The notes beneath the pieces are model-generated. The model saw only the letters and a program-made list of their open reading frames with translations, was not told the DNA's origin and searched no databases. Below, piece by piece: positions 1-64,000 of a stretch of 64,000 nucleotides of DNA. Position 1 is the stretch's first letter. Each line of letters begins with the position of its first letter. A program made the translations under genes and the position numbers. This DNA comes from an uncultured Acidimicrobiia bacterium (GTDB taxonomy: Bacteria > Actinomycetota > Acidimicrobiia > Spongiisociales > ZC4RG35), in assembly GCA_963840175.1 (NCBI GenBank), contig CAWIXU010000004.1, forward strand, positions 9,288-73,287, in the 5' to 3' direction.

Positions 1-34
1 ACTCGACATCTCGATTGACAATGCACCCGGCACC

Positions 35-400
35 GTGATCATCGCTATGACCCAGGCCGGCAACTCTGGTACGCCTGGTCTGTTGGATACAGGTGACATG
101 ATCCTCATCTACTTCTCTGAGGATGTCGTTGTCGCTCCCGGTGCCACGATCCAGCTTCTCGACCCTGACGGAACCACCGCCACGATCACATGTGGCGTCG
201 AGGCGACTTGCGCCTCCGGTCCTGCCGACCAACTGTTGATCACGATTACGGTTGCACTGCCCACCTCCGGCGGGACCACGCCCGGCATCGAGAATCAAGC
301 CGAGATAACAGCGGTAGGCGGCATCACCGCCTCTGACAACGGCGCTGCGGTCAACACTGCGGATTCGAGCGTTTTCGGCCGCACATTCTTCGACTTCTAG
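35..400 (+). CDS. C-terminal fragment of a secreted/surface protein with Ig-like beta-sandwich repeats; 5-prime end is outside the window
   Basis: ORF 35..400 continues from the window start. T/G/A-rich beta-strand repeats (ATITCGVEATCASGPADQLLITITVALPTSGGTTPG) resemble bacterial Ig-like surface domains. Confidence 0.35.
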   Translation: MIIAMTQAGNSGTPGLLDTGDMILIYFSEDVVVAPGATIQLLDPDGTTATITCGVEATCASGPADQLLITITVALPTSGGTTPGIENQAEITAVGGITASDNGAAVNTADSSVFGRTFFDF

Positions 401-441
401 CAGTTGACTCCAACGGGGAACGTGAGCGTCCCCGGCAACGT

Positions 442-3255
442 TTGACACCCATAGTGTCGAGGAAAATTTCGTTTGGGTTGGTGGTCGTTCTGATGGGCCT
501 TCTTGCGTCGCCGGCACAAGCTCATCCGGTTCCGATCGACACCTCGAGCGTCGTGCCCGGCGACCACCCCCAATGCGGGGTTCACCGACATTGGAACCTT
601 CGACGCCACTACTCGGACCGCCATCAACTGCCTGGCGGCCTTCGGGATCGCGCAGGGCACCACTGCTGCGACCTATTCGCCCAACGCCAACGTCGCCCGC
701 TGGCAGATGGCGCTCTTTCTCATTCGTCAGGCCGAGGACCATGGCCTGACCGTACCGGCGCCGGTCGATCAGGGTTTCACTGATATCGGCGGGCAGGCAG
801 CGGCGACGCAGAGACGCGATCAATCAGGTCGCGCAGATGGGGATCAGCAGCGGGACGACTTCGACCACCTTTTCGCCCAACGACACTGTTACTCGCTGGC
901 AGATGGCGCTTTTCCTCTATCGACTCGCCGTTCAGGCCGGGGTGACGGTCACCGACGATCCAACCAGCGATTCCTTTAGCGACATCGGCGGCTACGGCAG
1001 CGAGATTCAAACCGCGATCAACTTCCTCGCGGACGGGCACATCGCGCTCGGAACCAGCGAAGGAATCTTCTCGGGCAACGTAAATGTCACCCGCTGGCAG
1101 ATGGCTCTGTTCATCACCCGGGTGCTGGCGGCCGACGGCATCACGCAGTCGTGAGAGCGTATCATGCGCCGTTTGCTCATCGTTTCGGCAGTTCTTGCGC
1201 TGATTGCGGGCTGATGGCACTGCCCGCCGGAGCGTTGGTTTCGGAGGCCTGTCCTTCCAACCTGCCCGCCGGAGCGCTTCGGTGACCTGGCCGGTTTGAG
1301 CACGGATGCTCTGGATGCCATCGATTGCGTTGCCCATTACAAGATCGCCGCAGGGCACCTCGGCGACGACATTCAGCCCCAATTCTTCTGTGCTTCGCTG
1401 GCAGATGGCCCTGTTCCTCACCAGAACGGTGACGGCTCTGGGAGTCGCCCTTCCCAACGGAGCCGGCCAGGGGTTCACCGACATCGGATCTATGCCGGCG
1501 GCGACCCAGACCGCCATCAATCAGATCCGCCAACTCGGAATCAGCCTGGGGACCTCCGCTACCTCCTTCAATCCGTTGGGCGTGGTGCCTCGCTGGCAAA
1601 TGGCTCTGTTCCTGAGCCGGCTCCTCTCAAGCGGTCGGGGTCTCGCTTCCCAACGGCGCCAGCCAGGGCTTCACCGACATCTCGGCCATGCCGGTCGGCG
1701 ACGCAGGTCGCGATCAACCAACTTCGCCAGCTCGGCGTCGCGCTGGGGACAACCGCAACCAGACCTTCTCGCCGTTCAGCGACGTCTTGCGCTGGCAGAT
1801 GGCGCTCTTCCTGGCCCGGTCGACCGAAACCGCGGGTGGCCTTCCGTTCCGATTGGCGGCGGCGCTGCCAGTCGACCACTCCTCCGACCTCGGGCACTGT
1901 CCCCTTGACAGTCACCGTCCGCAATCCCGACGGAAGCCTGGCCAGCGAACCGGCGAGTGGACGTGTTCGTGGCGGCATCGCTCGACAGCAACGGGCGCTG
2001 CGTGCTCGACAACGATGCTCATGTCAACGGAGGCGATGCCGGCTACCAACAGCAACTGCGTGCTCGACAACAATGATCCGCTCACCAATGGCAGCGGTGT
2101 CGTTACGGTCAACCTCACCCACGATGCGACTCAGGAAGTCGACACGATTTACTCCTGGACCGGCGAGGTCGGTGAAACGTTCGATTTGCAGGACGTCCGA
2201 GGCGAAGCGGCGGTGCAGCTCACCTGGGGTGCGGCTCCAACCGGCCTGACCATTCCAGCAAACGTGAGCGCCGGATTTGCTACGTCAGCGCGCGGTCAGG
2301 GCCCAACTGATCGGGCCCGGGGGCGCGGCAGTGACCCTGTCGGGTCAGAACATCAGGTTCACGGTGCAGCGCGGCAACCAGACGATTCTCACCCAGACGG
2401 TGATGACGGGAGCCGACGGAAGCGCCACTCTGACCTATGTCGGTCCGGCCGATCCTTCGGGAGCAGACGACGCTGCGGTCATCGACAACGTCACGGCGTT
2501 CTGGGACAAGGACCGGGACAACGTCGACGACGGCGCGGCCGAGTTCGACGACAGCGGCACCGTTACTTGGGACGATCTGCTTGCCCCCGGTTACGACCGC
2601 CTCTCTCAGCCAGAGTTCCTTGACGCAATCTGCTCGGCGAGTTCGCTTCGATCTCGGTCACCGTCCGCGACAAGTTCAGTCAGCCGATCGCCAACGCCGA
2701 CGTGACGTTCCAAACCGGACAGGCCGGTCCGACCGTCGCCACCACCAACGCCTCTGGAGTGGCCACTTTCCAGTACACGGTCGTTGGCACGGGCTTGGCG
2801 GACTCCGTCGACGCCAGCGTGGATCTCAATCGAGATGGCGACACCAACGATCCCGGTGACCTGGGCTTTGGTGGCGTCACCAACCTCATTCACTACTGGG
2901 TCGCGACCGCGCCGACGCTGGCCGGGATTGACCGTCGTTCGATGTGATTGCGATCAATGCCGGCGCCAACACGGTCGACGTCGTCCAGATCGGCACCGCC
3001 AACTACTACCGGCTCACCTACGACGCGAATGACCAGTTCAATGTCAACGGGGGTGGCTCGGAGAGCCTGGACCAGTTCGAGTCGGCATTGGTCGGTATGC
3101 TGCTTCCGGATCTCGACGGTCCGGGAGGCCAGGAGCTGATCGACCAATCCCTACTCCACACCTGCCGGCGCCGCCAGCGCGTTCCTGCTGAATACCTAGA
3201 GCACGCTCTGGCTAGCGCCTCGAGCGATTTTTGGGACGCGGAGCCGTCGCCGTAG
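442..3255 (+). CDS. Large cell-surface protein with signal peptide, multiple SLH domains and bacterial Ig-like (Big) domains; reading frame interrupted by many frameshifts
   Basis: Signal peptide KISFGLVVVLMGLLASPAQA at 442. Repeated SLH signature FTDIG..AIN.LA.LGI..GTS.TTFSPN..VTRWQMALFL.R in ORFs 503..979, 837..1154, 1306..1908 and 1688..2623. Ig-like segments in 2277..2705, 2702..2947 and 2944..3255. All pieces are consecutive on the same strand in alternating frames. Confidence 0.6.
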
Positions 3256-4292
3256 GGGCTCGGGATGTCTCCGAGGTCGCTCCCATCCGACTTCGAGCAG
3301 GCGGCGCGCCTCGGCGCCGATCCCGGCACCGGCCGCGACTCGGACCGCGAACGTGCCCATGACCTCGGGGCGTTCGGTCGAGTTGCGGACCACCACCAAG
3401 GGTCGTTTCAAAACCGACACCTCTTCGGCGATCCCTCCCGAATCTGAAATCATCAACGCCGCCTCGGCCTCGAGAGCCAAGAAAGTCGCGATAGCCGATC
3501 GGTTCAACGACCATGAGCTTGTGCGAGCAGAGGCTCCGAGGCCGAACTCCTCGGCCCGGGCGACCGAGCGAGGATGCAACGGCAGCAGGACCGGCAGTGG
3601 CAGCGAGGCGAGCTCGATTCAGAATGGTCGAGTACGTGTCTCGCGTCGTCGACATTCTCGGGTCGATGAAAGGTCGAGAGGATGAAGCGGCCGCTTCCAC
3701 GCCGATACCGAGCCAGAATTTCTCCTACGATCCGTGGGAGCAAGGCGGCGACCGCTTCGACCACCGTGTTGCCTGTCAACGCCACCCGTCCGCCGCGATC
3801 CCCTCGGCGTGCGAGGTTGTCGACCGAAGTTGGCGTCGGGGCGCAACAGAGGTTGCTCAGGTGGTCGGTGACCACCCGGTTGTGCTCCTCGGGCATCCCC
3901 CAGTCGTGGCTCCGCAGCCCCGCCTCGATATGACAGAGGAAGACCGAGCGGGCGTTGGCGGCGAGGGCTCCGGCCGTCACCGAGTTGGTATCCCCTTGAA
4001 CGAGGACGGCACGAGGCTGCTGCTCGGCGAATAGTTCGTCGAGTGAAGCGATGGCCGAACCGATCTGTTGGCCGCGGCTGATCCCGCCGACTTCGAGGAA
4101 GGTGTCAGGGGTTGGGAGGCCGAGGTCGCGGAAGAAGACCTCAGAGAGGTTGGGGTCGTAGTGCTGGCCGGTATGGACGACGAAGGCGGCGTCGCCCAGC
4201 AGATGAATGATGTGGGAGAGCTTGACGATCTCGGGCCGGGTACCCAGCACGACCGCGATTGACTTGGGTGGGAATCCGTACTGGTTGGTCAT
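3196..4292 (-). CDS. wecB: UDP-N-acetylglucosamine 2-epimerase (non-hydrolysing), frameshifted near 3580-3660
   Basis: N-terminal part in ORF 3504..4292 (IAVVLGTRPEIVKL...HTGQHYDPNLS...LVQGDTNSV). C-terminal part in ORF 3196..3579 (ISDSGGIAEEVSVLKRPLVVVRNSTERPE). The two pieces are colinear on the minus strand. Confidence 0.85.
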
Positions 4293-4389
4293 AACCTCGG
4301 CCGGGCATGCTACGGGCTCTCCTCCTTGTTCTTGAGCTGGCCCTCATCGCCCTCATCGCCTACAACCTGCGTTGTCGCTCTGCTTTGGA

Positions 4390-5170
4390 TGGAGAAATCC
4401 CGTGACGAGGGCCAGCGGCAGTCGCGCAGCCACCGCTTCGTCATCGTGATCCCCGCTTACAACGAGGAGCGCGTCGTTGTCGCCCGGCCGGTCGCCGATC
4501 TGACACCACAACTAAGGGAAGGTGACGAGTTGTGGGTGCTCGCCGACCGATGCACCGACGACACGGCCGAGGTGGCGCAGGCGGCCGGAGCGCGCGTCGA
4601 CCGAACGCTCCGAGCGGGCCCGACGGAAAAGGCACCGGCACTGGCATGGTTCGTTGCCAAGCGACCGCTAGTTAGCGACGAGGCGCTCGTCGTGATCGAC
4701 GCCGACAATCGGGTCCCCGGCAAGCTCCTCGATCGGTTCGGCGCCGAACTGACCGACGGGCACTCGGTGCTGCAGGCCTACCTCGATGTGGCCAACCCCG
4801 ACGAGTCGGCGTTGGCGACCGCCTCGGCACTCTCGTATTGGGCTTCGAACCGCATGGTCCAGCTGGCGCGGGCCAACCTGGGTTGGACAGCCGATCTCGG
4901 CGGCACCGGCATGTGTCTGACTTCTCGAGGCGCTGAACGCACGCGGGCGGATTCGGGACATCGTTGGTCGAGGACCAGGACCTCGGAGTTCGCTGCTTTC
5001 TCGCCGGACACCCGGTCCGTTGGCTGCACGACGTTCGAATCGCCGATGAGAAACCTCCCACGGCCACCGTCGCTGTACGCCAACGGTCACGCTGGACAAG
5101 TGGACGTCGTCAGGTCGCTCGCCGTTGGTTGGAGAAGGTTGTCAGCCGAGCGACAGCCGGCGTCGCTTGA
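4390..5170 (+). CDS. Family 2 glycosyltransferase (GT-A fold), frameshifted near 5000
   Basis: ORF 4326..5477 contains FVIVIPAYNEE...VIDADN motifs. It continues in frame 4964..5170 (DQDLGVRCFLAG...RSRWTSG). Confidence 0.65.
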
Positions 5171-5458
5171 TCTCGCGCTTGCGTCTGGTGCAACCTTCGC
5201 GGATGGGGATGGCGTTGCTCAGCGCCGCGCTGGCCGTGGCCTCGGCTCTCGGCGCGTCCTCTGCTTGCCCTGGCCGTTGTGGACGGCGGTTGCGCTGGTC
5301 CAGTTGCTCGCCCCGATCCCGTTTCTGATCCGCGACCGGGTGCCGTCTCGCTATCTGAGGAAATATCCGCTGCTGGCGTTGCTCCCACTGCTCAAGATTC
5401 CGGGCACGCTTCGTCGCAACCGGGAGTGGTATCACACGCCCCACGGGTTATCGGACGG

Positions 5459-6375
5459 TTATCCGACTGGGCCCTGACGGCCCGGGGCGAGCGGAGTAGC
5501 CCGCGAACCAAGCCCGACGCCGTAACTCAGGTGCATGATCGCGATTGACCCAATACCTCGAGCAGCCGTCCCCGACTCGCCGAGGGCGAGCACCACGATC
5601 CAGACGACGATCAGGAGAAGCAGCGGCCACCAAATCGTGGTGAGCAGGCCGAAGGCGACCGCGACGACCAGGCCGAGAACCAGGGCTAGCGGAGCCAGCG
5701 GTCGCCATGACGGGAATTCGCCGTTGAGATAGAGCATGTCGGCCTTGCCCAGTCCGTATCGGTAGAACTGGCGCCACAGAGCTGCCGGTGTGGACCGGGG
5801 TCGATAGGTCGTACGGATACTAGGATCGATGAGGATCCGTCCTCCACGTTGGCGAAGTCGATAGAAGAAGTCGGCATCCTCGGCGACACGAGACGGCAGT
5901 GATCTCATCCCGCCGTTGGCGAGGAAAGTCTGCCCGGGTCATGGTTCCGAGATAGACGGTGTCACCTTCGGTTGGCTCCTCGGTGTGATGAAACGGCGCT
6001 GGTCCGATTCCGAACTTTCGAGCGGTAGGCCGCCGCGACCGCCCGGCCAAAAGCGTTGTCGCCTTGCGGACGCATCGGACCGCCGACCGCTGCGGCTCCC
6101 GAAGCGAGGAGTGCTTGCACCGAACGAGTTACGTAAGTCAGGGCCGTAGGTGGTGTGAGCATCGGCTCGGATCAAGACGTCGGCTGCGGTGTTGTCCGCG
6201 GCGAGGTTGAGCGCGTGCGATTGCAGGCGTCGGGGATTGTCGACGACGCGCAACCTTGGTAGGCGAACCAGCCAGCGGGCAAGATGTTCGGGAGTGGCAT
6301 CGGTGGAACCGCCGTCGGCGACAACGAGTTCCCACTCCCCGGCGTAGTCCTGTTCCTCAATGCTCTGCGAGGCAT
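5459..6375 (-). CDS. Family 2 glycosyltransferase on the minus strand, frameshifted
   Basis: C-terminal part in ORF 5459..5908 (EDADFFYRLRQRGGRI, then a TM helix). N-terminal part in ORF 5939..6253 (DAHTTYGPD...). Confidence 0.55.
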
Positions 6376-6450
6376 TCGTCGATACTCCCGGCCTCGTTGA
6401 AGACCGGAAGCAACACAGCGACCGAGGGCAGTTGATTACGTTCTATCGCA

Positions 6451-7802
6451 ATGACGGATTCGGCCTGGCGCCAGCGGTTGTTTCTGGCAATGGTGGCGGT
6501 GCTCCCGCTTCATACCGTTTATCTAAGCGCCTGGATTTCGTGGAAGCCGTTCATGGTCCTCCTGGCCGTCCTGGCCCTGTGGGACCTGGGCGACGGCATT
6601 CGGCTCCGGCAGTGGCCATGGCACAAGCGAATCACGCTCGCGTTCCTTCCCTTGATGGTGGCGGTTGCGATCGGGTTCCCAGGTCCTGAGCTATCGCGAA
6701 CGATTCATCCGGCTCGCCTTAGCGCTTGTCGTCGGGTTCGGGGTGCTGGCAGTTACCGAGCGACGACTGCGCGGCGTCAGGAATGGGAGCGCGCACCCTA
6801 CGGGTCATCTTCTGGTCCGCGGCCGCCATGGCGGTGACCGGCCTGATCTTCTCGGTGCTGCTTCTCGGCCTCGGGGGGGACGAAGGAATCGACTACCTCA
6901 CAGGGTCGCGCGGTTACGACCTTCCTCTCCTCGACAAAATTGGCAAGCCCGCCTATCTCTTGTCGGGTTTCCTCGCGCTTTCCAACTGGCATCAGGACCC
7001 GGGCTATGGAGCCGCTTGGGCGGTCCTCTGGGCGACATTGGCCCTCATCGCTTCCCTCCGCGGCCTCGGAACCAAAAGTCCTCTGATCGACGGAGCGATC
7101 ATCGGTGTTCTTTGGTCCGCAGTGGTGATGGGATTCTCCCGCACCGGGTGGGTGGCGCTGGCCGTGTCGTTGGTTCTCGTGGCCTGGAAGGTGACACGGC
7201 GAGGATTGGTCAAACGGATCGTCGCTGCAACCGTTGCCCTGATCTTGTCGATGGGGCTTCTCTTCGTCGCTGATGTCGAGAATGTCGGGGGGGAGCTGCC
7301 ACTTCAGTTCGCCTTTCGGCTCCGTCAGGGCTGGGACCTCCTGGCATCGATCACCGGGCTGTTCGAGTCATCCGCAGCCTTCGAGGACCAGTTCCAGCCA
7401 TCCGAGCAACGGGCCGACGTCTGGCCGGAGTACTGGCAACTGTTCCTCGACCACCCGGTCACCGGGGTGGGCTTCGGGGTTGGCTGGGAAACCAACTCCA
7501 TCGGCCAGGAACCGCACAACTTGTTTCTCGAGCTCGGAGCAGAAACCGGGATCATCGGTCTCGTCGCTTTTGCGTTGTTGTTGGGCTTGATCATTCGCGC
7601 CGGCAGCGGAGTTCTCGGGGCGGTGGCGCTGACCGTGTCGTTCTTGCCTGCGTTCACCCAGACAGTGCTCTTCGAACCAACCTGGTGGTTCGCCGCCGGC
7701 CTGTTCTTGGCCGCGGGAGGGAAGTTCGAGGATGCCGCGGAGATGCCTGTAGAGTCGTCTGACGAGTCAGGGGTTGTCACCCCAAAACAAGCTGCTGCCT
7801 AG
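6451..7802 (+). CDS. O-antigen ligase/polymerase family membrane protein (Wzy_C domain), frameshift near 6800
   Basis: ORF 6726..7802 has about 10 TM segments and the Wzy_C-like motif HNLFLELGAETGIIGL. The N-terminal TM segments are in ORF 6451..6837. Confidence 0.65.
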
Positions 7803-7849
7803 GGTTTTGGCGCGCCTTGCGTCTGCCTGGAAAGCTGGAAGGAGCGATT

Positions 7850-9727
7850 TTGCGCTCGCCAATCAGACAACTCCTCGCTGTGATTTTGGCCTTCGGGCTT
7901 CTCGGCGCGAACCTGCCCGTCGCCCACGCGCAGACGACCGATCCGACGTTCACCGTCACCGGATCGGGATGGGGTCACATGGTGGGAATGTCCCAATACG
8001 GAGCGAGGGCGCTCGCCGCGAATGGATCTTCGGCTGCCGATATCACCGGCTTCTATTACGCCGGAACCACCGTGCGTCAAACCACGGACGTCGTTTCCAA
8101 CTTCATGGTCACCGATCCCGATCCGCTCTGGATCGGACTGTTGCAGAACCGGTCGACCTTCAACTTCCGCGTCGACGGCGCCGGACCGGTCGGCCTTTGC
8201 AAAGCCAACGACGGCGAGGGCGAATGTCCCACCCAATTCGCCCTCTCGGGAGAAACCTGGGAGTTCCGCGCGTTGGGCGGCGGTGCCTGCCAGTACTTCA
8301 AAGCCGGGGTGGCAGTTGGCAATCCCGGAACCTGTCGCGGGGCCCTGACCTGGGACTTTGGCACGGGAACGAAGATCTTCTCACCCGATAACGGGCGGAC
8401 ATATGCCCGGGGCATCATCCGCTTCCGTCCGGCCGGAGCCGGATTCCATGTGGTTCTCGAAATCAACATGGAGGGATATCTCTATGGGCTGGGGGAGATG
8501 CCCTCGAGCTGGCCGATGGCGGCGATGCAGGCCCAGGCGATCGCGGCGCGCACCTACGCCTTGCGACAGGCATTGCGATACGGGCCGGAAGAGACGCTTG
8601 ACGCCTCCCGGCAGGCGACCTGTTGGTGTCAGCTGGTCTCCACGGTGGCCGATCAGGCGTACGTGGGTTGGGGCAAGGAGGTGGAGTCGCAAGGAAACCG
8701 GTGGGTCGAGGCAGTCAACACCAGTGCCGGCCAAGTGATCACCCACCCCCAAGCACCGGACTCGACAGTGATCGTCGCCTACTACGCCTCCTCCACGGGA
8801 GGCCACACCGATAGGAATGTCGAGGGCTTGGGCCACACCAATCCCTTGCCTTATCTGGTGGCGACGCCCGACCCCTGGTCCGTGTCAGCCGCCGCGGCTA
8901 ACCCTTTCGCGACCTGGACGCGCACGCTGACCGCAGCCGAGATCGCCACGGCCTTCGGGCTGGAATCAGTCACAGGCGTGGAGGTGACCCGACGCAATGG
9001 CTCCGGTACGGTGGCAGAGGTCACCATTGCCGGCACGCTTGGCGGACAGTCGACACTTCTTGTGCGCAGCGGCCGTAGTTTTCGTGATGCGTTTGCGATG
9101 CGTTCCACTGCCTACGCGATCAGCGGCGGGAGCGGGATCGGGACCGCCATCTGTGACGGCGTACCGCCCCCGGCGGGGTTCACCGATGTCGCGGTCGGCA
9201 ACATCCATTCCGAGGGAATCAACTGCCTGGCCGCCCTGGAGATCACCACCGGGACCACCGCCACCACGTTCTCGCCCGCCCAGGCGGTGAGCAGGTGGCA
9301 GATGGCAGTCTTCTTGATCCGCACCGCTCACGCCCTCGGGATTGCGGTGCCGGCACCCGTGCCGCAGGGATTCACGGACCTAACCGGCATGGCTCTCACC
9401 ACCGTCGATGCGATCAACCAGCTCAAACAACTCGGGGTCACCTCGGGAACGACCCCGACGACCTTTGCCCCCAACGCCAGCGTGTCCCGCTGGCAAATGG
9501 CGCATTTCCTCACCCGTCTTTTCGCGATCGCCGGCGGCGCACCGGCCGGAGCTGGCGCAAGCTTCAGTGATCTCAACGGCCTGAGCCCCGAGACGATCGC
9601 GGCGATTGGCCAGCTGGCCGGTCTGGGGATCACGCTCGGGACGGGTCCCGGGACCTTCGGCCCCAACGACGTGGTCACCCGCGAACAGATGGCGACCTTC
9701 CTCACCCGCCTGATCCGGCTCCTTTAG
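7850..9727 (+). CDS. SpoIID/LytB-domain protein (amidase enhancer family) with three C-terminal SLH domains
   Basis: Intact ORF 7817..9727. RBS GGAAGGA at 7837..7843, then in-frame TTG at 7850. Signal peptide. SpoIID motif GSGWGHMVGMSQYGA. Three SLH repeats at the C-terminus (TFSPAQAVSRWQMAVFL; TFAPNASVSRWQMAHFL; TFGPNDVVTREQMATFL). Confidence 0.85.
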   Translation: MRSPIRQLLAVILAFGLLGANLPVAHAQTTDPTFTVTGSGWGHMVGMSQYGARALAANGSSAADITGFYYAGTTVRQTTDVVSNFMVTDPDPLWIGLLQNRSTFNFRVDGAGPVGLCKANDGEGECPTQFALSGETWEFRALGGGACQYFKAGVAVGNPGTCRGALTWDFGTGTKIFSPDNGRTYARGIIRFRPAGAGFHVVLEINMEGYLYGLGEMPSSWPMAAMQAQAIAARTYALRQALRYGPEETLDASRQATCWCQLVSTVADQAYVGWGKEVESQGNRWVEAVNTSAGQVITHPQAPDSTVIVAYYASSTGGHTDRNVEGLGHTNPLPYLVATPDPWSVSAAAANPFATWTRTLTAAEIATAFGLESVTGVEVTRRNGSGTVAEVTIAGTLGGQSTLLVRSGRSFRDAFAMRSTAYAISGGSGIGTAICDGVPPPAGFTDVAVGNIHSEGINCLAALEITTGTTATTFSPAQAVSRWQMAVFLIRTAHALGIAVPAPVPQGFTDLTGMALTTVDAINQLKQLGVTSGTTPTTFAPNASVSRWQMAHFLTRLFAIAGGAPAGAGASFSDLNGLSPETIAAIGQLAGLGITLGTGPGTFGPNDVVTREQMATFLTRLIRLL

Positions 9728-9775
9728 TCCTATTTCCTCTGTAGGGAGAGTTGGGCGCGGCCGATTGATGACAGG

Positions 9776-10995
9776 ATGGCGGTTGTTGGCAATGGACCCG
9801 AAACAGAGTGCAGGCGTGACGTCGAAGAGCTGGACTCACCGCGGGGCTTCAAGGCACCGGGCACTGCTCGCATGATCGCCGGCTCGCTGGTCGGCGCGGT
9901 GGCGGCCTACCTCTTCCAGGTGCGTCGGCGTGCGCAGCGTCTGGGGACGGAAGCCTTCGCGCCGATCGCCGTCCTGTGGACCGTCTTCTTCATCGTCGCC
10001 ACTGTGATCGTCTGATTCCTCTGGAGCATTTCGTGACCCGCGAGGTGGGGCGAGGACGACGGGTGCTGCGTTCGGATCGAGCGGCGATGATCCTCTGATC
10101 CTCCTCTCACCGGCAACGCTGATCGCGGCTGTTCGTATTATCTGATGCGGGACCGCCTCTTTGCCGGCGAGTCGATCTTTGCGTTCCAGGCCTTCCTTCT
10201 GACGATCGGGTTTGGATTGATGCAGGTCGGCAAAGGCATCCTGGCCGGACATCGGCAGTTTGCTCGTTACGGGGCGCGTCCTGGGCTCGAAGGAATCATA
10301 CGGCTCTTGGCGGCCGTCATCTTCCTCGCGCTGTCGGCCAGCGCCGTCTCGCTCGGTTGGGCCATGGTGGCCGCGCCTCTCGGCGATCTTCTTCGTCACG
10401 ACCCTGGAGCCACGATCGGGAGACCGTCGCCGGAGTCGTCGCGACGCCGGCCCGCGGGTTCTTGTCTTCTTACGTTGCGGGCGCGGCAGCTTCCCAGCTT
10501 CTACTGGCCGGAGCCCCGCTCGCGGTAGCAGCTCTCGGTGGCAACGAGCATCTGCGTAGCGTCATGTTCGTCACCTTCACTCTGTATCGGGCGCCGCTGA
10601 CGCTGATTTACAACCTGCAGGGCCGAGTTCTTTCACTCCTGGTCCGCCTCGAAAACGGCGACGCGATTCGACGTCTGGATCGACCAGGGTGGCGACCTTC
10701 GGAGTCGGCATGATCGCGGTCGCCGGTCTGGTCGGATGGTTGGTCGGGCCGGCCGTCGTCGAGCTGCTTTACGGGCAGGATGCTCGTCCGATCGCACTCG
10801 TCGCAGCTTGTGCGGCGGCCGGCGTTATCGCCGCCTCGATCACGCAGATCCTTTCGCAGGCGCTGGTGGCGGGAGGATCAACCGGCGAGTTGGCCGGCGC
10901 GTGGGTCGGCGGCCTCGTCGTCGGGCTGGGGACGATGGCGCTTCTGGAACGGGCCTCCCGACGTGCGAGTGGCGGTCGGCTTCCTCGCCGGCGGA
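9776..10995 (+). CDS. Polysaccharide biosynthesis protein / Wzx-like flippase, fragmented by frameshifts
   Basis: TM-rich fragments in ORFs 9776..10015, 10145..10528, 10357..10713 and 10689..11045 (LYGQDARPIALVAACAAAGVIAASITQILSQALVAGG). These resemble the C-terminal half of MATE/Wzx-type flippases and sit inside a glycan-biosynthesis cluster. Confidence 0.4.
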
Positions 10996-11450: not shown

Positions 11451-11569
11451 GCTTACGAAGTATCAAGAACCGTTAACTACCGTCAAGTCCCTTAGAAACC
11501 TTCTTTTCGCGACTTCTGGATGCTTCAGCTTCTCCCCGGAGCGGGGATAGCGCGCGATCGCGTTTTCTT

Positions 11570-14752: not shown

Positions 14753-14826
14753 AAATCAACCGGAGCCAAAGTCGAATGGATAGTCCCCGGTAGCATCAAA
14801 GGTTACCTCTCGACGTCAGGTATTCC

Positions 14827-17744: not shown

Positions 17745-17772
17745 GACGTCAGATCAGACGTCAGACATCAGA
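17743..17772. repeat. Heptad repeat arm (GACGTCA GATCA GACGTCA GACATCA) immediately after the lpdA-like stop
   Basis: Tandem GAC(G/A)TCA heptamers seen in the sequence. Inverted copy at 18623..18656 and paired copies at 45427..45505. Confidence 0.7.
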
Positions 17773-17896
17773 ATGTCGTTGTAGCCAACGTTCGTGAACT
17801 GCCGACACACGGTTCCAGAGCGCATCTACGGCGCTCGGAGGTCCGTCGGGGCGAATGGCGAAGACATCTGCCAAGGCGGCGAACCAGTCGCCCGGA

Positions 17897-21909: not shown

Positions 21910-21911
21910 TA

Positions 21912-40274: not shown

Positions 40275-41526
<1,252 letters not shown>

Positions 41527-41563
41527 GCCGAGGCCGGAAGACCAGAAGACCGTTTCTGTCTCT

Positions 41564-53650: not shown

Positions 53651-53673
53651 GGCTCGGCCGTTCTTCGTAATCG

Positions 53674-54024
53674 TGGAGGCGGCGGGAATCGGACCCGCGT
53701 CCCATGAGTCGTCAGCGCCGGCATCTCCGAGCGCAGCCGTCGGCGAGCTTGTCGGCAAGAAGGACCCCAACGGCGGGCTTCCCACTCGCTTATCCGGAGT
53801 TGATCTTTGCCCTCCGGTCCCGGATCCCGGAGGACGCATCCTGCATTGCGACGCCCGATTCCGGCGAGGCAGGCGCCCACCGGGCGGACGGGCTGCGTTA
53901 TTTAGGCAGCCAGTGCGAAGTTGTCTTCGGCACTTGTGTTTGTTTCCGGCTCTTTAACGAGGTTCCGGAGACCTCGGCTCGCTTCCGACGCATCAACACT
54001 CATGGTCGAAACCATTTCGCCCCC
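53674..54024 (-). ncRNA. ssrA: tmRNA (ssrA), about 351 nt; tag reading frame ...GCC GAA GAC AAC UUC GCA CUG GCU GCC UAA (AEDNFALAA)
   Basis: Minus-strand 5-prime end GGGGGCGAAAUGGUUUCGACC (compare M. tuberculosis GGGGCUGAACGGUUUCGAC). 3-prime tRNA-like end GGACGCGGGUCCGAUUCCCGCCGCCUCCA(+CCA). Acceptor stem GGGGGCG/CGCCUCC with G3-U70. Tag ends ALAA, then UAA UAA. Located just downstream of smpB as in other Actinobacteria. Coordinates +/-2 nt. Confidence 0.8.
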
Positions 54025-54085: not shown

Positions 54086-55226
54086 ATGACGATCTACGAC
54101 AACGAGGATCTCGAGGCGATTCGCCAGCAAACCCGGCGCTTCGTCGAGGAGAAAGTCATTCCGGAGGCGGACAAATGGGAGGAGGCCGGTCGGGTCCCCC
54201 GTGAGATCCTCGACGAGATGGCCAGGATCGGCTTCTTCGGTCTGCGGGTCCCGGAGGAGTACGGGGGAGTCGGTTTCGGACCCCTCGCCACCGTCGCCTA
54301 TGCCGAGGAGCTCGGGCGTTCGACCTACGGCGGCTTCGCCATCACCGCCCTGGTCCACACCGAGCTCGCCATGCCGTACCTCTTCAACTTCGGCTCGGAA
54401 GAGCAGAAGCAGCGCTGGCTCCCGGCCATGGTCAACGGCGAGATCATCACCGCCATCGCGGTCACCGAGCCCGACGCCGGTTCGGATGTCGCCAACATTC
54501 GCACGAAGGCGGTGCGCGACGGTGACGGCTGGCGGATCAACGGCTCCAAACTCTTCATCACCAACGGGGGAATCGCCGACCTGGTCTTCGTCGCGGTCAA
54601 GACCAATCCCGAAGCGAAAGGGTCGAGGGGCATATCGATTCTCGCCGTCCCAAAGGACGCTGAGGGATTCAGTGTGAGCCGGGCGCTAACGAAGATGGGA
54701 TGGCACTCCTCGGACACAGCTGAGCTCTCGTTCAACGATTGCTGGGTTCCCGCCGACCACCTCGTCGGCGACGAGAACCGCGGCTTCTACTACATCATGA
54801 CCAACTTCCAGAACGAGCGGCTCGCCATCGCCGCGCAGGCAATCGGCGAGGCGAGCGAGAGCGATCGAGCTCACGCTCGAATACACAAAACAGCGCAAAG
54901 CGTTCGGCAAACCGCTTTTCGACAAGCAGGCCATTCGTCAGCGCCTGGCTATGGCCTCCACCGAGGTCGAGGCTGCCCGACTACTGGTCTATCACGCGGC
55001 ATGGTTGATGGAGCAGGGCGAGGATGCCGTCAAGGAAGTGTCGATGGTGAAGGCGCTAGTCGGCGAGCTCGTCAACGACGTGCTCTACGAATGCGTCCAG
55101 TTCCACGGGGGCATGGGATACATCGCTGAGACCGCGGTGGAACGCCTCTATCGCGACGTTCGCATCCACTCGATCGGCGGTGGTGCCACCGAGGTGATGC
55201 TCGACGAGGTCGCCAAGCGCCTCTAG
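54086..55226 (+). CDS. Acyl-CoA dehydrogenase, frameshift near 54860
   Basis: ATG 54086 (MTIYDNEDLEAIRQQTRRFVEEKVIPEADKWEE...). ACAD N/M/C domains in ORF 53921..55129. C-terminus in ORF 54951..55226 (LYECVQFHGGMGYIAETAVERLYRDVRIHSIGGGATEVM). Confidence 0.8.
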
Positions 55227-56077
55227 CGGATCCACTGCGTCGACTCGATGCGAGCGGCCTCGACGGCAGATCCGGACTGCCGCCTCGACATGCGTCGGAG
55301 GACCCTTGGCGCGACCGCCATACCGATGACCGCCCAGCCGGCGAGGACAGCCACCGTCTGCAGGGTGCGCCAGGACCCGCCGATCTCCAAAGCGGCCGCC
55401 GCTTCCGGTAGGAACGCCGAGCGCATACCGAGCCCCAGCCAATACATCGGAAAGACCTGGGCCACCCCCTCCAGCCAATCCCACAGATCTTGGATTGGAT
55501 AGAAGATTCCCGATATGCCGAGGAGCACCAGGATCGGCAGCATTCCCCAGGTTCCGACCTTCTGCACGCCCGGAACCGTCGCCCCGATGATGATCCCGAT
55601 CGGCAGGGTCGCAAGCAGACCGAGCACGACAACCCAGGCGAACGTGAGCCAGCCGTTGAGACCGTTGTACATGAAGTTGTCGAACAAGAAAGAAGCGGGG
55701 ATCAGAATCACGGCGAGCGAGGGGAGCAAGCCAAGTGCGTTTCCGAAGATGTGGGCCGACATGTATCCGACGATTCCGTACGGTGCCGCCTTCGATCTCA
55801 GCACGGTTCCGTCCTCACGCTCCATTGCCAATGAATACGCGGGTCCGACGACCAGGCCGAAGGCGATCATGGCCCCCAGGAGGCTCGGCATGGCCAAGGT
55901 CGGGTAGGACAGAGTGGTTCCTTCCACTTCGGTGTTTCGACGAAGGAATAGGTAGCCCAGAGTTGCCAGGGCCATGAACAGGAAGAAACCCTGGTCCTGG
56001 GGACTCTTGAGGCTCAGGACGAATTCCGTCCAGCCTCGCTTGAGGCCGTTGCGAACCGCATGCAGACGGGGATTCAT
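55223..56077 (-). CDS. ABC-2 type transporter permease
   Basis: Intact ORF, 6 TM segments. Adjacent to and co-oriented with the ATPase gene. Confidence 0.75.
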   Translation of the reverse strand: MNPRLHAVRNGLKRGWTEFVLSLKSPQDQGFFLFMALATLGYLFLRRNTEVEGTTLSYPTLAMPSLLGAMIAFGLVVGPAYSLAMEREDGTVLRSKAAPYGIVGYMSAHIFGNALGLLPSLAVILIPASFLFDNFMYNGLNGWLTFAWVVVLGLLATLPIGIIIGATVPGVQKVGTWGMLPILVLLGISGIFYPIQDLWDWLEGVAQVFPMYWLGLGMRSAFLPEAAAALEIGGSWRTLQTVAVLAGWAVIGMAVAPRVLRRMSRRQSGSAVEAARIESTQWIR

Positions 56078-56992
56078 TTCTCGACCTCCTCAAATCCGGT
56101 CGTACTCGCTTCACCAGCCACTTCGAATTGCTGGACCATCGCTAGATAGGTGTCTTCGAGAGTTGCCCGTCTTACCTCGAGTTCTTCGACCGCATCGCCA
56201 TGTTCGTTCAACAGCGACCGGACGAAACGGCGTCGCGTCCGGCGTGGTTTCGACATGGCGCTCACCGTCGAGCCGCCACCGGACCTCGGAATCGCGCGTC
56301 ACCCTTCGCGCCAGGTCCTCGACTGTGCCGTCCGCCACGATCCGGCCGCCGGCGAGGATCAGAATTCGATCGGCAAGCTTGTCGGCCTCGTCCAAATCGT
56401 GAGTGGTCAAGAGAATCGTTGTGTCCTCAAGCTGGGAGAGCTGAAGAACGAGCCCGTGAAAGTCGCGCTTGGCTTGCGGGTCGAATCCGGCGGTGGGCTC
56501 GTCGAGAAATAGCAGCTCGGGCCTTCCGACGATCCCGATGGCGACGTCGAGTCGACGTCGCTGTCCACCAGAAAGCGTGCGGATCTTCTGGTGGGCCTGC
56601 CCCTCGAGACCGATCATGGAGATCAGTTCCTCAGGCGGGTAGGGGCGGCGCCGTTCCGGTGTCGAGTAAGGCTCGTAGTAGCGGCCGAGATGCTCGAGCA
56701 AACCGAGCGGCGTCCAGCGGGCGTGGTCGCGCCAAGATTGCAGCACCACCCCCACCCGGGCTCGCCAATCCTCGGGGGCATCTTGCGGATTCGTGCCGAG
56801 CACATCGACCCGACCGGCCGAAGGAGATCGAAAACCTTCCAGGATCTCAATCGTGGTGGTCTTGCCCGCGCCATTGGGACCCAGCAACGTCACGACCTCG
56901 CCTCTGCGCACCTCGAAATCGACGCCGTTGAGTACATCGACGTCGCCGTAGCGCATCCGCAAGCCTTCGACTTCGATGACAGGCTGGTCCAT
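56074..56992 (-). CDS. ABC transporter ATP-binding protein, frameshift near 56260
   Basis: Walker A GPNGAGKTT, signature LSGGQRRRL and Walker B LLFLDEPT in ORF 56111..56992. C-terminal ...ATLEDTYLAMV in ORF 56074..56265. Confidence 0.85.
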
Positions 56993-59529: not shown

Positions 59530-60112
59530 GTGATCGAGCGGCTCAAAATCGATCGAGCTGGTCGTCGCTTCGAAGAACCCCGACAAGATCGCCGAGATCG
59601 AAGCCGTGCTGGTTGCCACTGGCGCGGTGGGCGAGATCGTGCAGGGTCTCGACTGGCCCGACGTCGAGGAGACCGAGGACACTCTCGAAGGCAATGCGCG
59701 CCTGAAGGCACAAGCGGTCTACGACGCGACCGGCTTGCCGGCGTTGGCCGACGACACCGGTCTTTTCGTCGACGCCCTCGGCGGTCTGCCCGGAGTGAAC
59801 ACCGCTCGTTACGCCGGTCCCCACGCGAGCTATACCGACAACGTCGCCCTCCTGCTCCAGACTTTGGGCGACCGGGACGACCGTCAAGCAGTCTTTCGCA
59901 CGGTGATGGTGATAGTCGGAGCCGGCAGGAGCCTGGTCGCCACCGGCGAGCTCAACGGCCAGATTGCGTTCGGACCGAGAGGCGCCAACGGGTTTGGCTA
60001 CGACCCGATCTTCGAAGTCGAGGGCCGCACCCTCGCCGAGATGTCCGAAGATGAGAAGAACGAGATGTCGCACCGCGCCCGCGCTATTCGGGCACTGGTC
60101 GCGCTGCTCTAG
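59530..60112 (+). CDS. rdgB: Non-canonical purine NTP pyrophosphatase (RdgB/Ham1), one frameshift near 59555
   Basis: GTG 59530 (MIERLKI), then after a shift ELVVASKNPDKIAEIEAVL, then ORF 59606..60112 (...ALADDTGLFVDALGGLPGVNTARYAG...ANGFGYDPIFEVEGRTLAEMSEDEKNEMSHRA). Immediately downstream of rph, as in most bacteria. Confidence 0.8.
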
Positions 60113-61039
60113 CCCTTGGTCGCTCCGGCGGTGAGGGCGCCGATGATCTGTTTCTGGGCGATCAGGAACACCGCCACGATCGGGAGCGCACCCAGCAGCG
60201 CCGTCGCCGCCAGCAGACCCCACTTGGCGTTGTAGCCCTCACCGAGGAAGGCCTGCAGGCCGACCGGGAGCGTGAACTGCTCGGTTCCCTGCAAGAGGAA
60301 CGACGCCAGGATGAACTCGTTGAAGATTCCGACGAAGCTGATGATGAAGATCACCGCGAGCATCGGGCGAGCCAGGGGCAGGATGATGCGCGAGAAGATT
60401 CCGAACTCGGTCGCACCGTCGATCACCGCCGCCTCGTCGAGGGAGGCCGGGATCGAGTCCAGGTAACCCTTGATCAAGAAGGCGTTGAAGCCGGCCGCGC
60501 CACCGAGATAGACCAGGATCAGGTAAAGGTGGGTGTTGAGCCCGACGGCGGGGACGATGCCGCCGATCTGCTGCGCCAGACACAAAGAAGGCGATGAATC
60601 CCAGGAATTGCGGGAAGATCTGCAGCACCAGGAGCAACGTCAGCAATCCCCGCCGTCCTCGGAACCGAAGGCGAGAGAAGGCGTACGCGGCGAACGACGC
60701 GATGATCACGTTGAGCCCGGCCGCGACCAGCGCCACCTTGAAGCTGTTGAAGAGCCACGTCGGGACTGGGGCGACCGTGCTGCGGAAGAGCTGGACGAAG
60801 TTGTCGAGCGTGACCTGCTGGGGGATGAGCCGCGAGGCACCCAGGTTGTCGACGGCGTTGAACGAGGCCGAGATGATCCACACCACCGGAAACAGCGCGA
60901 ACAGGGCGGCAATGATGGCGACCAGGTGCCGCCAGCCGCGCAGCTGGAACCCGCGCTTGTAGTGCGCCCAGCGAGCCTCCCGGGTTGTCTCCGCTGGCCT
61001 GGAGGCGGTGCCGACGACAACGCTCGAATCACCCGCCAT
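60109..61039 (-). CDS. Carbohydrate ABC transporter permease (MalG-like), frameshift near 60560
   Basis: ORFs 60239..61039 (N-terminal) and 60109..60585 (EAAVIDGATEFGIFSRIILPLARPMLAV... EAA-loop region). Confidence 0.75.
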
Positions 61040-62700
61040 AGATCTCCTCCAGTCGCTTGGTGAGTCGGAAGCTCGTGGCCGACGAGACGGCGAGGATCAC
61101 GAAGATGATCACGATGACCGCCGAGGCGAGGGCGAATTGATTGCCGCGTCCCGCTCCTTGGGCCAGGTTGAAGGTGAAGGAGATCAGCAGGTCCGACGCC
61201 CCCACCGGGACGTCGTAGCCGCTCAGAGGCGGCCCACCTCCGGAGAGCAAGAAGATCAGGACGAAGTTGTTGAAGTTGAAGGCGAAGGCCCCGATCAGAA
61301 GCGGCGCAGTCGACACCAGCAGAAGCGGCAACGTGACCGATCGAAACACCTTGAACGGGTTGGCACCGTCCACCCGAGCTGCTTCCTGCAATTCGACCGG
61401 AACTGAGGTCAGAGCGCCGGATGAGATCAAGAACATATAGGGGAAACCGAGCCACAAGTTGACAATGAAGATGGCAACGAGGACCCACCATGGGTTCCCG
61501 AGCCAGTCGACTCCCGGTATCCCGAACGTTTCGAGGATGCCGTTGACCTTTCCAAACCGATCATTGAGCAAGCCGCGCCAGATCAGGATCGAGAGGAAAC
61601 CCTGGGATGGCATAGGGGATGATGTAGATCGACCGGTAAAACGCCCGGCCCTTCATCGCCTTCGTCTTGGAGGGCAATGGCCAGGACAAGACCCAAACGC
61701 GAAGTTGAGGATCACCGAGCCGAATGCGAAGACGATGTTCCACGTAAAGACTCGTAGAAAGGGGCCGCGGATTCGTTCGTTGGTGAGAATGTTGGCGTAG
61801 TTGTCAAAGCCAACCACCGAGCGCCAGCCGATGAAGCGGCTCTCGATCGCCGAGGTGGGAACCTGATTGCACACCCCACCAGAACAGGTGATGCTCGTCT
61901 CCGTTGCCGCGATCGCGGTTCGGGCAACGTCCTCTTCGGGCACTCCGTCGCAGAGGAAGTTGCCCGTGCCGGCCACACAGACGCGTTGGGTCTGGTTATC
62001 GGTGAGGGTGTCGGTGGCCGGGTCATAGCTAAAGCGCTGCCCGACGTTGCGGACATTGACGCTGGAAAGCGTCTCGAGAGCTGCCTGCCGGCCATCGGGC
62101 AAGTCGAGGATCAGGTCCTGCAAGGTCCCTGACATCCCGGCCAGACGCAAACGGGGAATCAACGTGTAATCGCCCAGCGTTTCGGGGGGAGCGGCAGGAT
62201 CGATCGCGGCGTCCCCGGTGTTGAGGTGCGAATCGGTTATCGGATCAGAATCGCTCGGCCGCGGAGTGCCAAAGAACGGCTCGGCTTCGCCGCCACCGAT
62301 CAGGAAGGCGAGCTGGCCGTCGTCAGTGGTGTAGACGGACAGCGGCAGAGTTTGATCGGTGCCGTCGCTTGCCATCGGGATCGCCTCGAGGGCGCTGATG
62401 GCCTGCGGCTTGGAGAGGAAGTTGCCAGTTCGCCAGTTGGTCAGCGAAACGTAGAAGGTATAGAAGACCGGGTAGACGACGAAGATCGCCATCAGGATCA
62501 GGCCGGGAGTCAACCAACGCGAAGCCGAGGCTCGCGGGCTCAGATAGGCCCAGTTGACGAGCACCGCGGCCCCAATCAGAAATCCGAACAAGGGTCCAGG
62601 ATTGATTGGCAACGAGCTGGGGGATCGCAAAGATGATCAGCGCGTCGAAGATCGCGACCGCGATGGTGCGAATCCACATTCCTTTCGCGGTTCGCTGCAA
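61029..62700 (-). CDS. Carbohydrate ABC transporter permease (MalF-like, with large periplasmic loop), frameshifts
   Basis: C-terminal ORF 61029..61613 (EAARVDGANPFKVFRSVTLPLL). N-terminal and periplasmic-loop part in ORF 61653..62630. First TM (MWIRTIAVAIFDALIIFAIPQLVANQSW) in the frame of ORF 62323..63909. Confidence 0.7.
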
Positions 62701-62794
62701 ACCGCGGTCCCACGCCACCTGTTCCTCCTCCCACCAGGCGTTCGAGTTGTGGAGCGAGCCCACCACCGAAGTGGTGGGCTCACTCGGATGGATC

Positions 62795-64000
62795 AGCCTC
62801 CGGCGATAGCCGAGCGGACTGCTTCGGCCGCCGTCGTCATCGCTTCGTCCGCGGCGATTTCGCCGTTGCGAATCAGCAGCATGTTGTCGCCAAGGGGACC
62901 CCACACCGAGGCCATCTCGGGCACGTTGGGCATCGGAATCCCGTTGCCTGCCGCCTCGGCGAAGGTCTGCGACTTGTGGATCGGAGCTCAAGCCGTCCTG
63001 CACCGCCTGCCAGGCCGTCCCGCGGGGATCGGCGTCGTACATTGCCTGCATGACTTCATCGGTGGCGATGAAATCGAGCAGGAAGGTCTGGGCCAGGAGC
63101 TTCTGCTCGGAGAAGGCCGAGATGAAGAAACCCTGTGCTCCCACGAACGGCTGGGTCGGCTGGTCACCGATCTGGGGAATCACCGCCACATCCCAGTTGA
63201 CCGTGGTCTGCTCGCGCAGGGCGCCGAGTTCCCAGGGCCCGGTGATCCAGAACGCCGAGGACCCCTCGAGGAAGAGGTTCTTGGCGGTGTCATAGTCGGT
63301 CGACGCAACAACTCCCGCCGACACCTGGTCGGCCAGATATTGCGCTCCCTGGATCGCCTCGGGAGTGTCGAGACGGACTTCGCTCGGGTCGTAGCTCCCG
63401 GTCTCAGGGTCGTAGGCGAAGATCGAGCCGCCATAGGCGGAGACGAACGGGTAGTTGTGGTAGGCGTCGGTGGCTGCGCCGCCGCCGGGGATGCCGAGGC
63501 AGGTATCGACCGCGGCGGCTTCGCAGGCTGCCGCCACCTCGTCGAAGGTCGCCGGGGCCGTGGGGACCAGGTCGGTGTTGTAGTAGAGGGCGATGGTTTC
63601 GGTGACATAGGGCACCGCATAGGTCTGACCCTCGAAACCGAAGGCATTGACCGCAACGGGTACGAAGCTGTCGGCCTTGGCGCCGAGATCGATCGGATCG
63701 ATGACGCCGTTGGCGACGAGCTCGCCGGTCCAGTCGTGGGCACCGACGAAGATGTCCGGACCCTCACCGGCGGGGCCGGCGGTCGAGACCTGGTCACGGA
63801 TCTCGCCGAACGGCACCAACTCGACGATTACCTCGACTCCGGTCGCCTCGGTGAAGGCGGGAGCGATGGCCTGGAGCGGCTCGACCCGCCGTTCGTCCGC
63901 CCAGATCACCAGCGCTTCACCGGCCGCGGCCGCGGTGGTTTCGGCGGCCGCAGAGGTAGTCGTTTCCTCGACCCCGGCGGTAGTGGTCGTTGCCAGATCG
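62795..64000 (-). CDS. Sugar ABC transporter substrate-binding protein (MalE-like), 5-prime partial (start beyond window end), frameshift near 62950
   Basis: ORF 62323..63909 (...IFVGAHDWTGELVANGVIDPIDLG...AFWITGPWELGAL...). Corrected C-terminus ...PNVPEMASVWGPLGDNMLLIRNGEIAADEAMTTAAEAVRSAIAGG. Upstream of the MalF/MalG-like permeases on the same strand. Confidence 0.75.

Follow-up and report, generated by a model that had tools for sequence, protein, structure and literature searches.

Frameshifts throughout a 64 kb Acidimicrobiia metagenome contig very probably reflect uncorrected long-read consensus errors rather than genome decay

A bacterial contig in which most housekeeping genes appear to be broken raises the question of whether the organism is losing its genes or whether the deposited sequence is wrong. 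The window considered here, that is, the whole stretch of 64,000 nt that was analyzed, belongs to a 73,689-nt contig from an uncultured Acidimicrobiia metagenome-assembled genome (MAG), with ORFs recorded from NCBI and ENA. On the basis of comparative evidence, we infer that the frameshifts in this window are very probably consensus errors left uncorrected in a long-read metagenome assembly of low quality, and not genome decay, and that the real genes of the organism are almost certainly intact.

Frameshifts were located with a frameshift-allowing protein-to-DNA aligner written for this analysis, using as queries intact orthologues from five related contigs; the reference contigs were the Illumina contigs L001/L083, L013 and L003, and the nearest relative, contig_4077 (L002/L164/L082). 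Over the 51.6 kb aligned in this way, at least one frameshift was found in 36 of 50 comparable protein genes, and the 226 frameshifts comprise 169 events of net +1, 48 of net −1 and 9 of net −2. Event positions are concordant across independent reference proteins: placements in the class A penicillin-binding protein (PBP) gene from L013 and L003 lie at most 3 nt apart, and those in the methylmalonyl-CoA mutase gene are the same from L013 and L003, with the middle one 3 nt off when L002 is used (15986 vs 15989). When the identical reference proteins were aligned to contig_4077 as a control, most genes gave no frameshifts, with 28 calls in total, several of them double-counted from two references; this near-clean result indicates that the aligner does not over-call. 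At this codon bias, neither GC3 frame plots nor position-specific GC scoring could map the frames, both being too noisy. The SLH genes at 440..2100 and the ABC permease genes at 60112..62636 lie outside the region covered by close relatives, and in regions without relatives (SLH, wecB) Pfam was run on X-masked translated frames. By Pfam or by eye, wecB, the SLH proteins, rdgB and the two ABC permeases are also broken, giving about 41 of 57 genes, in agreement with the estimate in the preliminary description that at least 40 of about 55 genes need frame correction. The features covered by these comparisons are as follows.

440..2100, + strand: SLH-domain protein gene(s) with a Pfam SLH match, whose six SLH motifs are scattered across the three forward frames; in the six-frame translation, RWQMALF(L/I) occurs twice per forward frame, the third copy being RWQMALFI, and the repeat spacing is 196/198 nt
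3250..4298, − strand: wecB (UDP-GlcNAc 2-epimerase), at least one frameshift near 3600-3640; Pfam Epimerase_2 positions 13-199 and 216-317 fall into different frames
4295..5496, + strand: GT2 glycosyltransferase (named from the Pfam match of the orthologue), 13 frameshifts
5467..6509, − strand: GT2 glycosyltransferase, 8 frameshifts, all +1
6436..7799, + strand: Wzy_C/O-antigen-ligase-like gene, 2 frameshifts
7803..9724, + strand: SpoIID/SLH protein gene, 2 frameshifts near the 5' end (7821, 7852)
9737..11450: two hypothetical genes, one of 444 aa on the + strand (8 frameshifts) and one of 190 aa on the − strand (3)
12179..14752, − strand: class A PBP, 3 frameshifts at about 14023, 13155 and 12533
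14794..16374, + strand: methylmalonyl-CoA mutase, 3 frameshifts (15904, 15989, 16029) within one long ORF
16404..20154: Pyr_redox dehydrogenase (7 frameshifts), N-acetyltransferase (2) and a 500-aa hypothetical (2)
20154..23462, − strand: acyl-CoA carboxylase alpha BC-BCCP (12 frameshifts) and carboxyltransferase beta (5), by Pfam labels
23476..26374: biotin protein ligase (5 frameshifts), dienelactone hydrolase (10) and LCP protein (13)
26417..29278: ugd (10 frameshifts, mostly deletions), cofE (3) and cofD (11)
29377..34233, + strand: 877-aa hypothetical (21 frameshifts), DUF5719 (9), 130-aa hypothetical (4), DUF3499 (0) and DUF6788 (1)
35083..41523: 789-aa hypothetical (at least 19 frameshifts), GT2 (12), manB (10), Trm112 (0), PGI (9) and ahcY (6)
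45529..48121, + strand: secA, disrupted by a single net +1 insertion at about 46024 (range 46020-46027)
49394..51047, + strand: ftsE (inserted G at 49475) and ftsX (inserted G at 50375)
53671..54024, − strand: tmRNA gene, free of indels when compared with contig_4077
54086..56992: acyl-CoA dehydrogenase (inserted G at 54855), ABC-2 permease (0) and ABC ATPase (inserted G at 56229)
59531..60109, + strand: rdgB (Ham1), with a GTG start codon and, just downstream, a 16-nt quasi-duplication after codon 5 that shifts the frame; the remainder is full length
60112..62636, − strand: two ABC sugar-transporter permease genes, the second with three frame changes within 200 nt, near 61600-61720

All the genes listed by name in the preliminary description do carry frameshifts (secA, "accA", "accD", PBP, ahcY, ftsE, ftsX, manB, ugd, cofD and rdgB), where "accA" corresponds to the BC-BCCP alpha subunit and "accD" to carboxyltransferase beta. 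Its wording that nearly every coding sequence is broken holds for 36 of the 50 aligned genes and is too broad for the other 14, which are intact (p450, HPF, a response regulator, an M23 peptidase, SmpB, the ABC-2 permease, DUF983, PNPOx, an MBL-fold protein, RNase PH, Trm112, DUF3499 and two small hypotheticals), as well as for the undisturbed tmRNA gene.

The indels bear a consistent signature. About 75% of the frameshifts are single extra bases (net +1), with insertions outnumbering deletions by about 3:1, and across the 50 aligned genes there are no in-frame stops, against 226 frameshifts. Single-nucleotide insertions fall after codon positions 1, 2 and 3 in 91, 97 and 94 cases, that is, without phase preference, and the intergenic share of these insertions (7%, for 5.4% of the sequence) means that they are not scarcer between genes than inside them. 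The frameshifts exist, are blind to coding, and come without any other sign of decay. The preliminary description had pointed to homopolymer runs as a place to look for such errors, and here the expectation fails: 117 of the 157 insertions that could be located to the base have no adjacent identical base (chance expectation 80), no deletions were found within runs of at least 3 nt, and only 4 of 103 homopolymers of at least 5 nt lie near a frameshift. Homopolymer-driven error was accordingly rejected, as was a methylation-like or slippery motif, no sequence motif being found around the 157 located insertions. A strand-specific bias toward inserted G, hinted at by 42-58 kb, was likewise rejected, with G equal to C overall. 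This insertion-dominated, non-homopolymer signature departs from that of textbook Nanopore data.

Error density is patchy at the kilobase scale, ranging from about 0.07% (roughly one event per 1.5 kb) to about 1% (roughly one per 100 nt), with 0-2 events per 2 kb at 42-60 kb versus 9-23 at 20-42 kb, and it tracks the true third-position divergence between the window and its nearest relative (rho 0.79). In indel-rich genes, mismatches relative to contig_4077 amount to 25.1% at third, 6.9% at first and 3.6% at second codon positions, and in indel-poor genes to 12.0%, 2.0% and 1.5%, respectively. We considered whether substitution errors underlie the higher mismatch rate of the indel-rich genes, and rejected this, since mismatches biased to the third position reflect real divergence and not error. 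In a relative-rate test on low-error genes, 26 amino acid changes are unique to the window versus 21 to the relative; for ahcY, despite its frameshifts, the corresponding values are 10 and 11. Furthermore, downstream of each frameshift, identity to the orthologue is still 96-100%. Taken at the level of sequence comparison, these values indicate that purifying selection is normal and that amino acid change in this lineage is not accelerated.

The nearest relatives of the window are contig_4077 of MFD09206.bin.1.94 and contig_49612 of ERZ25039588. A relative about 95% identical to the window at the nucleotide level does not contain the window's insertions, and proteins of the window and of contig_4077 fall into shared clusters with shared NCBI and ENA source tags. 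The genes that are broken in the window have unbroken orthologues in three Illumina contigs and, for the most part, in contig_4077, which carries frameshifts of its own that are also +1-dominated and sit at different positions (13 in the 444-aa gene, 3 in the PBP gene). Overall, the sister contigs from the Nanopore-based Microflora Danica project have about 10 times fewer frameshifts with the same signature, and the two sister assemblies differ from each other by only 7 gap openings (8 gapped bases) over 18.6 kb. This long-read project used Flye with --meta --nano-hq followed by one round of Medaka, and it reports a drop in coding density for those of its MAGs that combine lower coverage with a reduced GC content, most of which are archaeal and rich in long homopolymers (PMC12313526). 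A depth of about 40x is needed for a near-finished Nanopore-only consensus (PMC9262707).

Four further features call for separate treatment.

48146..49281, + strand: prfB, with a programmed +1 site (CTT TGA C, 48221-48226) and an artefactual insertion at about 49062-49068
11569..12120, + strand: DUF559 element copy 1, with an ORF divided between two frames; contig_4077 lacks the element at this site
41563..42111, + strand: DUF559 element copy 2, with an intact ORF at 41675-42040
52937..53669, + strand: radical SAM gene remnant, 5 frameshifts

The prfB site (CGGAGG TTT CTT TGA C, at 48221, after codon 26) is kept in two relatives and fits the programmed +1 frameshift of RF2 autoregulation; it is, as judged from its sequence, the sole biological frameshift found in the window, and the other 226 sites differ from it in lacking such a motif and in being unconserved. 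The preliminary description had left undecided whether a two-copy DUF559 decay and the five-fold broken radical SAM gene were real. The former does not stand, as copy 2 is intact and copy 1 alone is split. For the radical SAM gene, the five breaks are there, and decay and error can be separated in part: the contig_4077 copy, too, can be aligned to the intact 374-aa orthologue of an Illumina assembly over residues 64-363 only. As the copy is partial in the sister assembly too, at least one real pseudogene is plausible, and some genuine decay of this gene is possible.

Taken together, the lack of stop codons, the phase-blind insertions, the maintained selection, the symmetric rates, the patchiness and the assembly-specific positions all support the earlier suggestion of an indel-prone assembly. 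The events also strike essential single-copy genes (secA, prfB, ftsEX, PBP and acyl-CoA carboxylase), and a living cell could not tolerate the breakage of all of these, which again argues for an artefact. The contig would then be a consensus with hundreds of unfixed base-calling and assembly errors, mainly single extra bases with fewer single-base losses, probably from a Nanopore-only, Flye- and Medaka-type soil metagenome assembly like those of its Microflora Danica relatives. The patches may reflect low effective read depth, mixed strains, or both. The link between indel density and true divergence can be accounted for by hypothesis alone, in that stretches near-identical to co-occurring relatives would gather more reads and polish better.

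It is possible, albeit not our favored account, that the proximate cause of the artefact is a collapsed or chimeric consensus of at least two co-occurring strains and not plain low depth, in which divergent reads aligned to one draft produce spurious insertion columns, and the assembly path may switch strain at repeats. The rise of indel density with third-position divergence would follow, and DUF559 copy 2, which contig_4077 lacks, lies at the sharpest change-point (41.5-42.2 kb), where indel-rich sequence gives way to clean sequence; moreover, apparent frameshifts in long-read assemblies are known to arise from collapsed haplotypes (PMC8445201). However, two strains' alleles would differ at wobble positions, where the insertions show no preference, such that retention of both alleles at these positions was rejected, and density also varies inside repeat-free blocks. 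We consider it unlikely that the errors come from another insertion-prone platform or unpolished draft (PacBio CLR or early Nanopore chemistry) outside the Microflora Danica pipeline. Raw-read errors of PacBio CLR do show a similar insertion-dominated, homopolymer-independent pattern, but +1-dominated patches of this kind also occur in a contig from the same species group that was assembled from Nanopore reads with Flye and Medaka, and the proteins of that contig share the tags and clusters noted above with those of the window.

Readings in which the extra bases are real fare far worse. Decaying genomes such as that of Mycobacterium leprae, which resembles the window in being from a high-GC actinobacterium with many interrupted genes, keep their essential genes while accruing nonsense codons, deletions and relaxed substitutions; none of these marks was found in the window. 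Very recent decay, with most genes being pseudogenes, is therefore highly improbable: the frameshifts are indeed present in the deposited sequence, and the radical SAM gene is partial in the sister assembly too, but nonsense codons are absent, third-position bias is preserved, essential single-copy genes are struck repeatedly, density changes by a factor of more than ten over kilobases, and the close relative lacks the insertions. Barely conceivable is that the extra bases are removed or skipped in expression through widespread programmed +1 frameshifting, bypassing or RNA editing. The bias to single extra bases and the one true programmed site in prfB are what such recoding would share with the data, against which stand the absence of a slippery site, stop codon or motif at insertion sites, the uniform codon phase, the same density between genes, 57 events of net −1 or −2, and sites unconserved in close relatives. 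That the extra bases are truly in the DNA, with the genes still expressed through genome-wide recoding (single-base skipping, deletion editing) or with the cell caught just after a catastrophic burst of insertions, strikes us as equally far-fetched.

Uncorrected consensus error in turn has a known counterpart in the gene-fragmenting indels of Nanopore and PacBio assemblies, for which the IDEEL test of full-length proteins exists, and with which the window shares split, truncated and fused housekeeping ORFs; published accounts describe this fragmentation as depth-dependent and absent from accurate assemblies of relatives (PMC9262707; PMC12007338; PMC12313526). The window differs in that the literature mainly blames homopolymers for Nanopore consensus indels whereas its own errors are mostly single extra bases outside them, and in that its density, locally about 1%, is far above that of typical polished assemblies. 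As the extra bases lie outside homopolymers, most of the errors would escape polishing or filtering that targets homopolymers, and reference-guided or short-read polishing is needed instead.

Truncated, split and fused ORFs appear in the gene calls because the deposited sequence is, on this reading, wrong, and they are already in public protein collections, with a risk of false pseudogenes, false "novel" families and wrong domain architectures. The deposited SecA product (P0001), for example, is shortened to 676 aa, and the 600-aa ORF at 31712-33514, deposited as P0122 and labeled "DUF5719", is evidently an artefactual fusion, a chimeric protein; a protein search with this ORF did not return the orthologue from the nearest relative. 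For the biology of the organism itself the frameshifts have no significance: it is an ordinary member of the Acidimicrobiia with housekeeping genes that are almost certainly intact.

We compared each orthologue to hand with the window (64% G+C) using a purpose-written program for local alignment of protein to DNA, in which a frameshift is allowed at a penalty of 15 and stop codons are scored; the count for each gene comes from its best reference. The relatives were an Illumina JGI contig (L001/L083), two Illumina MAG contigs (L013 and L003), and contig_4077 of the Microflora Danica MAG "MFD09206.bin.1.94", of which L002, L164, and L082 jointly span 53 kb (L163 is a sister contig). Positions 4165–58154 are collinear with contig_4077 at 83–95% nucleotide identity. 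The long ORFs of the window encode SecA, RF2, methylmalonyl-CoA mutase, a transglycosylase, and similar products, and several ORFs start or stop in the middle of a Pfam model (SecA_DEAD from 147, RF-1 to 76/116, AdoHcyase from 182). In a protein search, the SecA fragment was up to 89% identical to full-length SecA (~865 aa) of Acidimicrobiia MAGs and 100% identical to a deposited "SecA" of 676 aa, encoded on a contig of 73,689 nt in NCBI and ENA; the latter is the window's own record, with the truncation already present.

At least one frame correction was required in 36 of 50 genes, giving 226 frameshifts (169 net +1, 48 net −1, and 9 net −2) over 51.6 kb aligned. Positions obtained from independent references agree to within a few bases, with three PBP and three mutase events each recovered with L013, L003, and L002. 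As a control, identical Illumina-derived proteins aligned to contig_4077 gave zero frameshifts in most genes, and the counts in the window are therefore not produced by divergence. At the two ends of the window, beyond the reach of the relatives, wecB is spread over two frames, six SLH motifs are distributed across three frames, and one permease changes frame three times within 200 nt. With these end genes and rdgB the total comes to roughly 41 of 57 genes affected, in agreement with the at least 40 of about 55 in the preliminary description; its wording that nearly every CDS is frameshifted holds for 36 of the 50 aligned genes and fails for the other 14, which are intact. Every gene that it named (secA, accA/accD, PBP, ahcY, ftsEX, manB, ugd, cofD, rdgB, and radical SAM) is affected, as listed here.

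Lesions in individual genes of the window
secA: 1 frameshift
acyl-CoA carboxylase alpha: 12 frameshifts
acyl-CoA carboxylase beta: 5 frameshifts
class A PBP: 3 frameshifts
ahcY: 6 frameshifts
ftsE: 1 frameshift
ftsX: 1 frameshift
manB: 10 frameshifts
ugd: 10 frameshifts
cofD: 11 frameshifts
radical SAM: 5 frameshifts
rdgB, 59546–59561: 16-nt quasi-duplication (GATCGAGCGGCTC / GATCGAGCTGGTC) after the fifth codon, just past the start

We note that the rdgB quasi-duplication is another type of lesion than the single-base insertions.

The observation is thus confirmed, and five comparative lines (spectrum, coding-blindness, selection, patchiness, and assembly-specific errors) support its attribution to an indel-prone assembly, that is, to a sequence-quality artefact and no biological feature. 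No in-frame stop codon was found in the 50 genes by the same frameshift-aware alignment, and a lesion spectrum of 226 frameshifts versus 0 nonsense codons points to error. In the DNA alignment to contig_4077, 1-nt insertions number 91, 97, and 94 by preceding codon position 1, 2, and 3, and 7% are intergenic versus 5.4% of the sequence; the insertions are blind to coding. Selection on the genes is intact: mismatch to contig_4077 at third positions is 25.1% in indel-rich genes (6.9% and 3.6% at the others) and 12.0% in indel-poor genes (2.0% and 1.5%). With L001 as outgroup, amino acid changes unique to the window are as frequent as those unique to the relative, both in low-error genes (26 versus 21) and in ahcY with its six frameshifts (10 versus 11), and SecA past its frameshift is 96% identical to its orthologue over 700 residues.

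The errors are also patchy, with 9–23 events per 2 kb at 20–42 kb and 0–2 (one bin 5) at 42–60 kb, where the tmRNA gene (53671–54024; tag peptide AEDNFALAA) is undisturbed. Indel density per gene follows true substitution divergence from contig_4077 (Spearman 0.79), and its steepest transition, at 41.5–42.2 kb, is located on a DUF559 repeat copy absent from contig_4077. This pattern fits better polishing where stretches common to co-occurring strains draw more reads, as well as a contig that is a strain-mixing consensus or path, although the absence of any wobble-position preference speaks against simple retention of both alleles. Third-codon-position divergence from contig_4077 itself varies ~3-fold among genes of 4165–58154 (~9% in the response regulator, ~32% in ahcY), which suggests a recombination mosaic or strain-mixing assembly.

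The DUF559 (Vsr-like endonuclease) element occurs in two copies of ~550 nt, 81–95% identical, at 11569–12120 and 41563–42111, with one transition in divergence and error density at each. Because both are missing from the matching contig_4077 sites, the element is probably mobile. The suggested decay of both copies finds no support, as copy 2 holds a complete ORF (41675–42040, model positions 4–105/109) and the split is confined to copy 1.

Comparing indels with homopolymer runs, a check proposed earlier, gave a negative result: of 157 net +1 events (among 169) assignable to one specific inserted base, 117 have no adjacent identical base, versus 80 expected under random insertion, and only 4 of 103 homopolymers ≥5 nt lie near a frameshift. 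None of the located deletions falls in a run ≥3 nt, G and C, in equal shares, make up 78% of inserted bases, and no sequence motif was found around them.

Contig_4077 has a few frameshifts of its own, mostly +1 as in the window and at other positions (13 in g5, a hypothetical 444-aa gene; 3 in PBP, 2 in manB, and 1 in SmpB), and the sister contigs differ by just 7 gap openings (8 gapped bases) over 18.6 kb; the errors are assembly-specific, every assembly having its own set. In this species-representative MAG, manB, SmpB, and PBP are split and the hypothetical gene is hit 13 times (L082 3618–3944 and 16709–17174; L002 5538–6663 and 7385–9961), gene calls disagree between the two sister assemblies (L163 vs L164), and a called 109-aa "gene" antisense to the tmRNA gene (L082 18160–18489) is almost certainly spurious. 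The project pipeline was Flye (--meta --nano-hq) with one Medaka round, and coding density was reduced in lower-coverage, reduced-GC MAGs, mostly archaeal with many long homopolymers (PMC12313526); the same group found that R10.4 consensus requires about 40x depth before it is near-finished (PMC9262707). Since +1-dominated patches are common to the window and the Nanopore-only contig_4077, we infer that the window came out of this pipeline or one much like it, with a low effective depth.

In prfB (48146–48226), a 26-codon ORF0 leads into a classical programmed +1 site, CGGAGG TTT CTT TGA C (48221–48226), in which a GGAGG Shine-Dalgarno-like element precedes CTT TGA C; conserved in L001 and L082, it is the sole biological frameshift found in the window, the other in prfB (~49062–49068) being an error. 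Decay and error in the radical SAM gene, described as not yet separable, are partly disentangled: the five frameshifts stand, and the contig_4077 copy also aligns only partially (residues 64–363/374 of the intact L001 orthologue), so some real decay is possible. The radical SAM and tmRNA segment is inverted in the window (52740–54050) and contig_4077 relative to L001 17154–19021. The window and contig_4077 also share, between acyl-CoA dehydrogenase and PNPOx, an ABC-2 transporter pair and a DUF983 gene (55226–57420) absent in L001. The deposited 600-aa "DUF5719" ORF P0122 (31712–33514) joins out-of-frame pieces of two genes and is an artefactual fusion; the true orthologue has 427 aa and needs nine frame corrections across 32036–33323.

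It is very improbable that the inserted bases are genuine, be it through decay or through recoding. Joint loss of housekeeping genes had been judged implausible from the outset, and multiply broken secA, prfB, ftsEX, PBP, and acyl-CoA carboxylase would be incompatible with a living cell.
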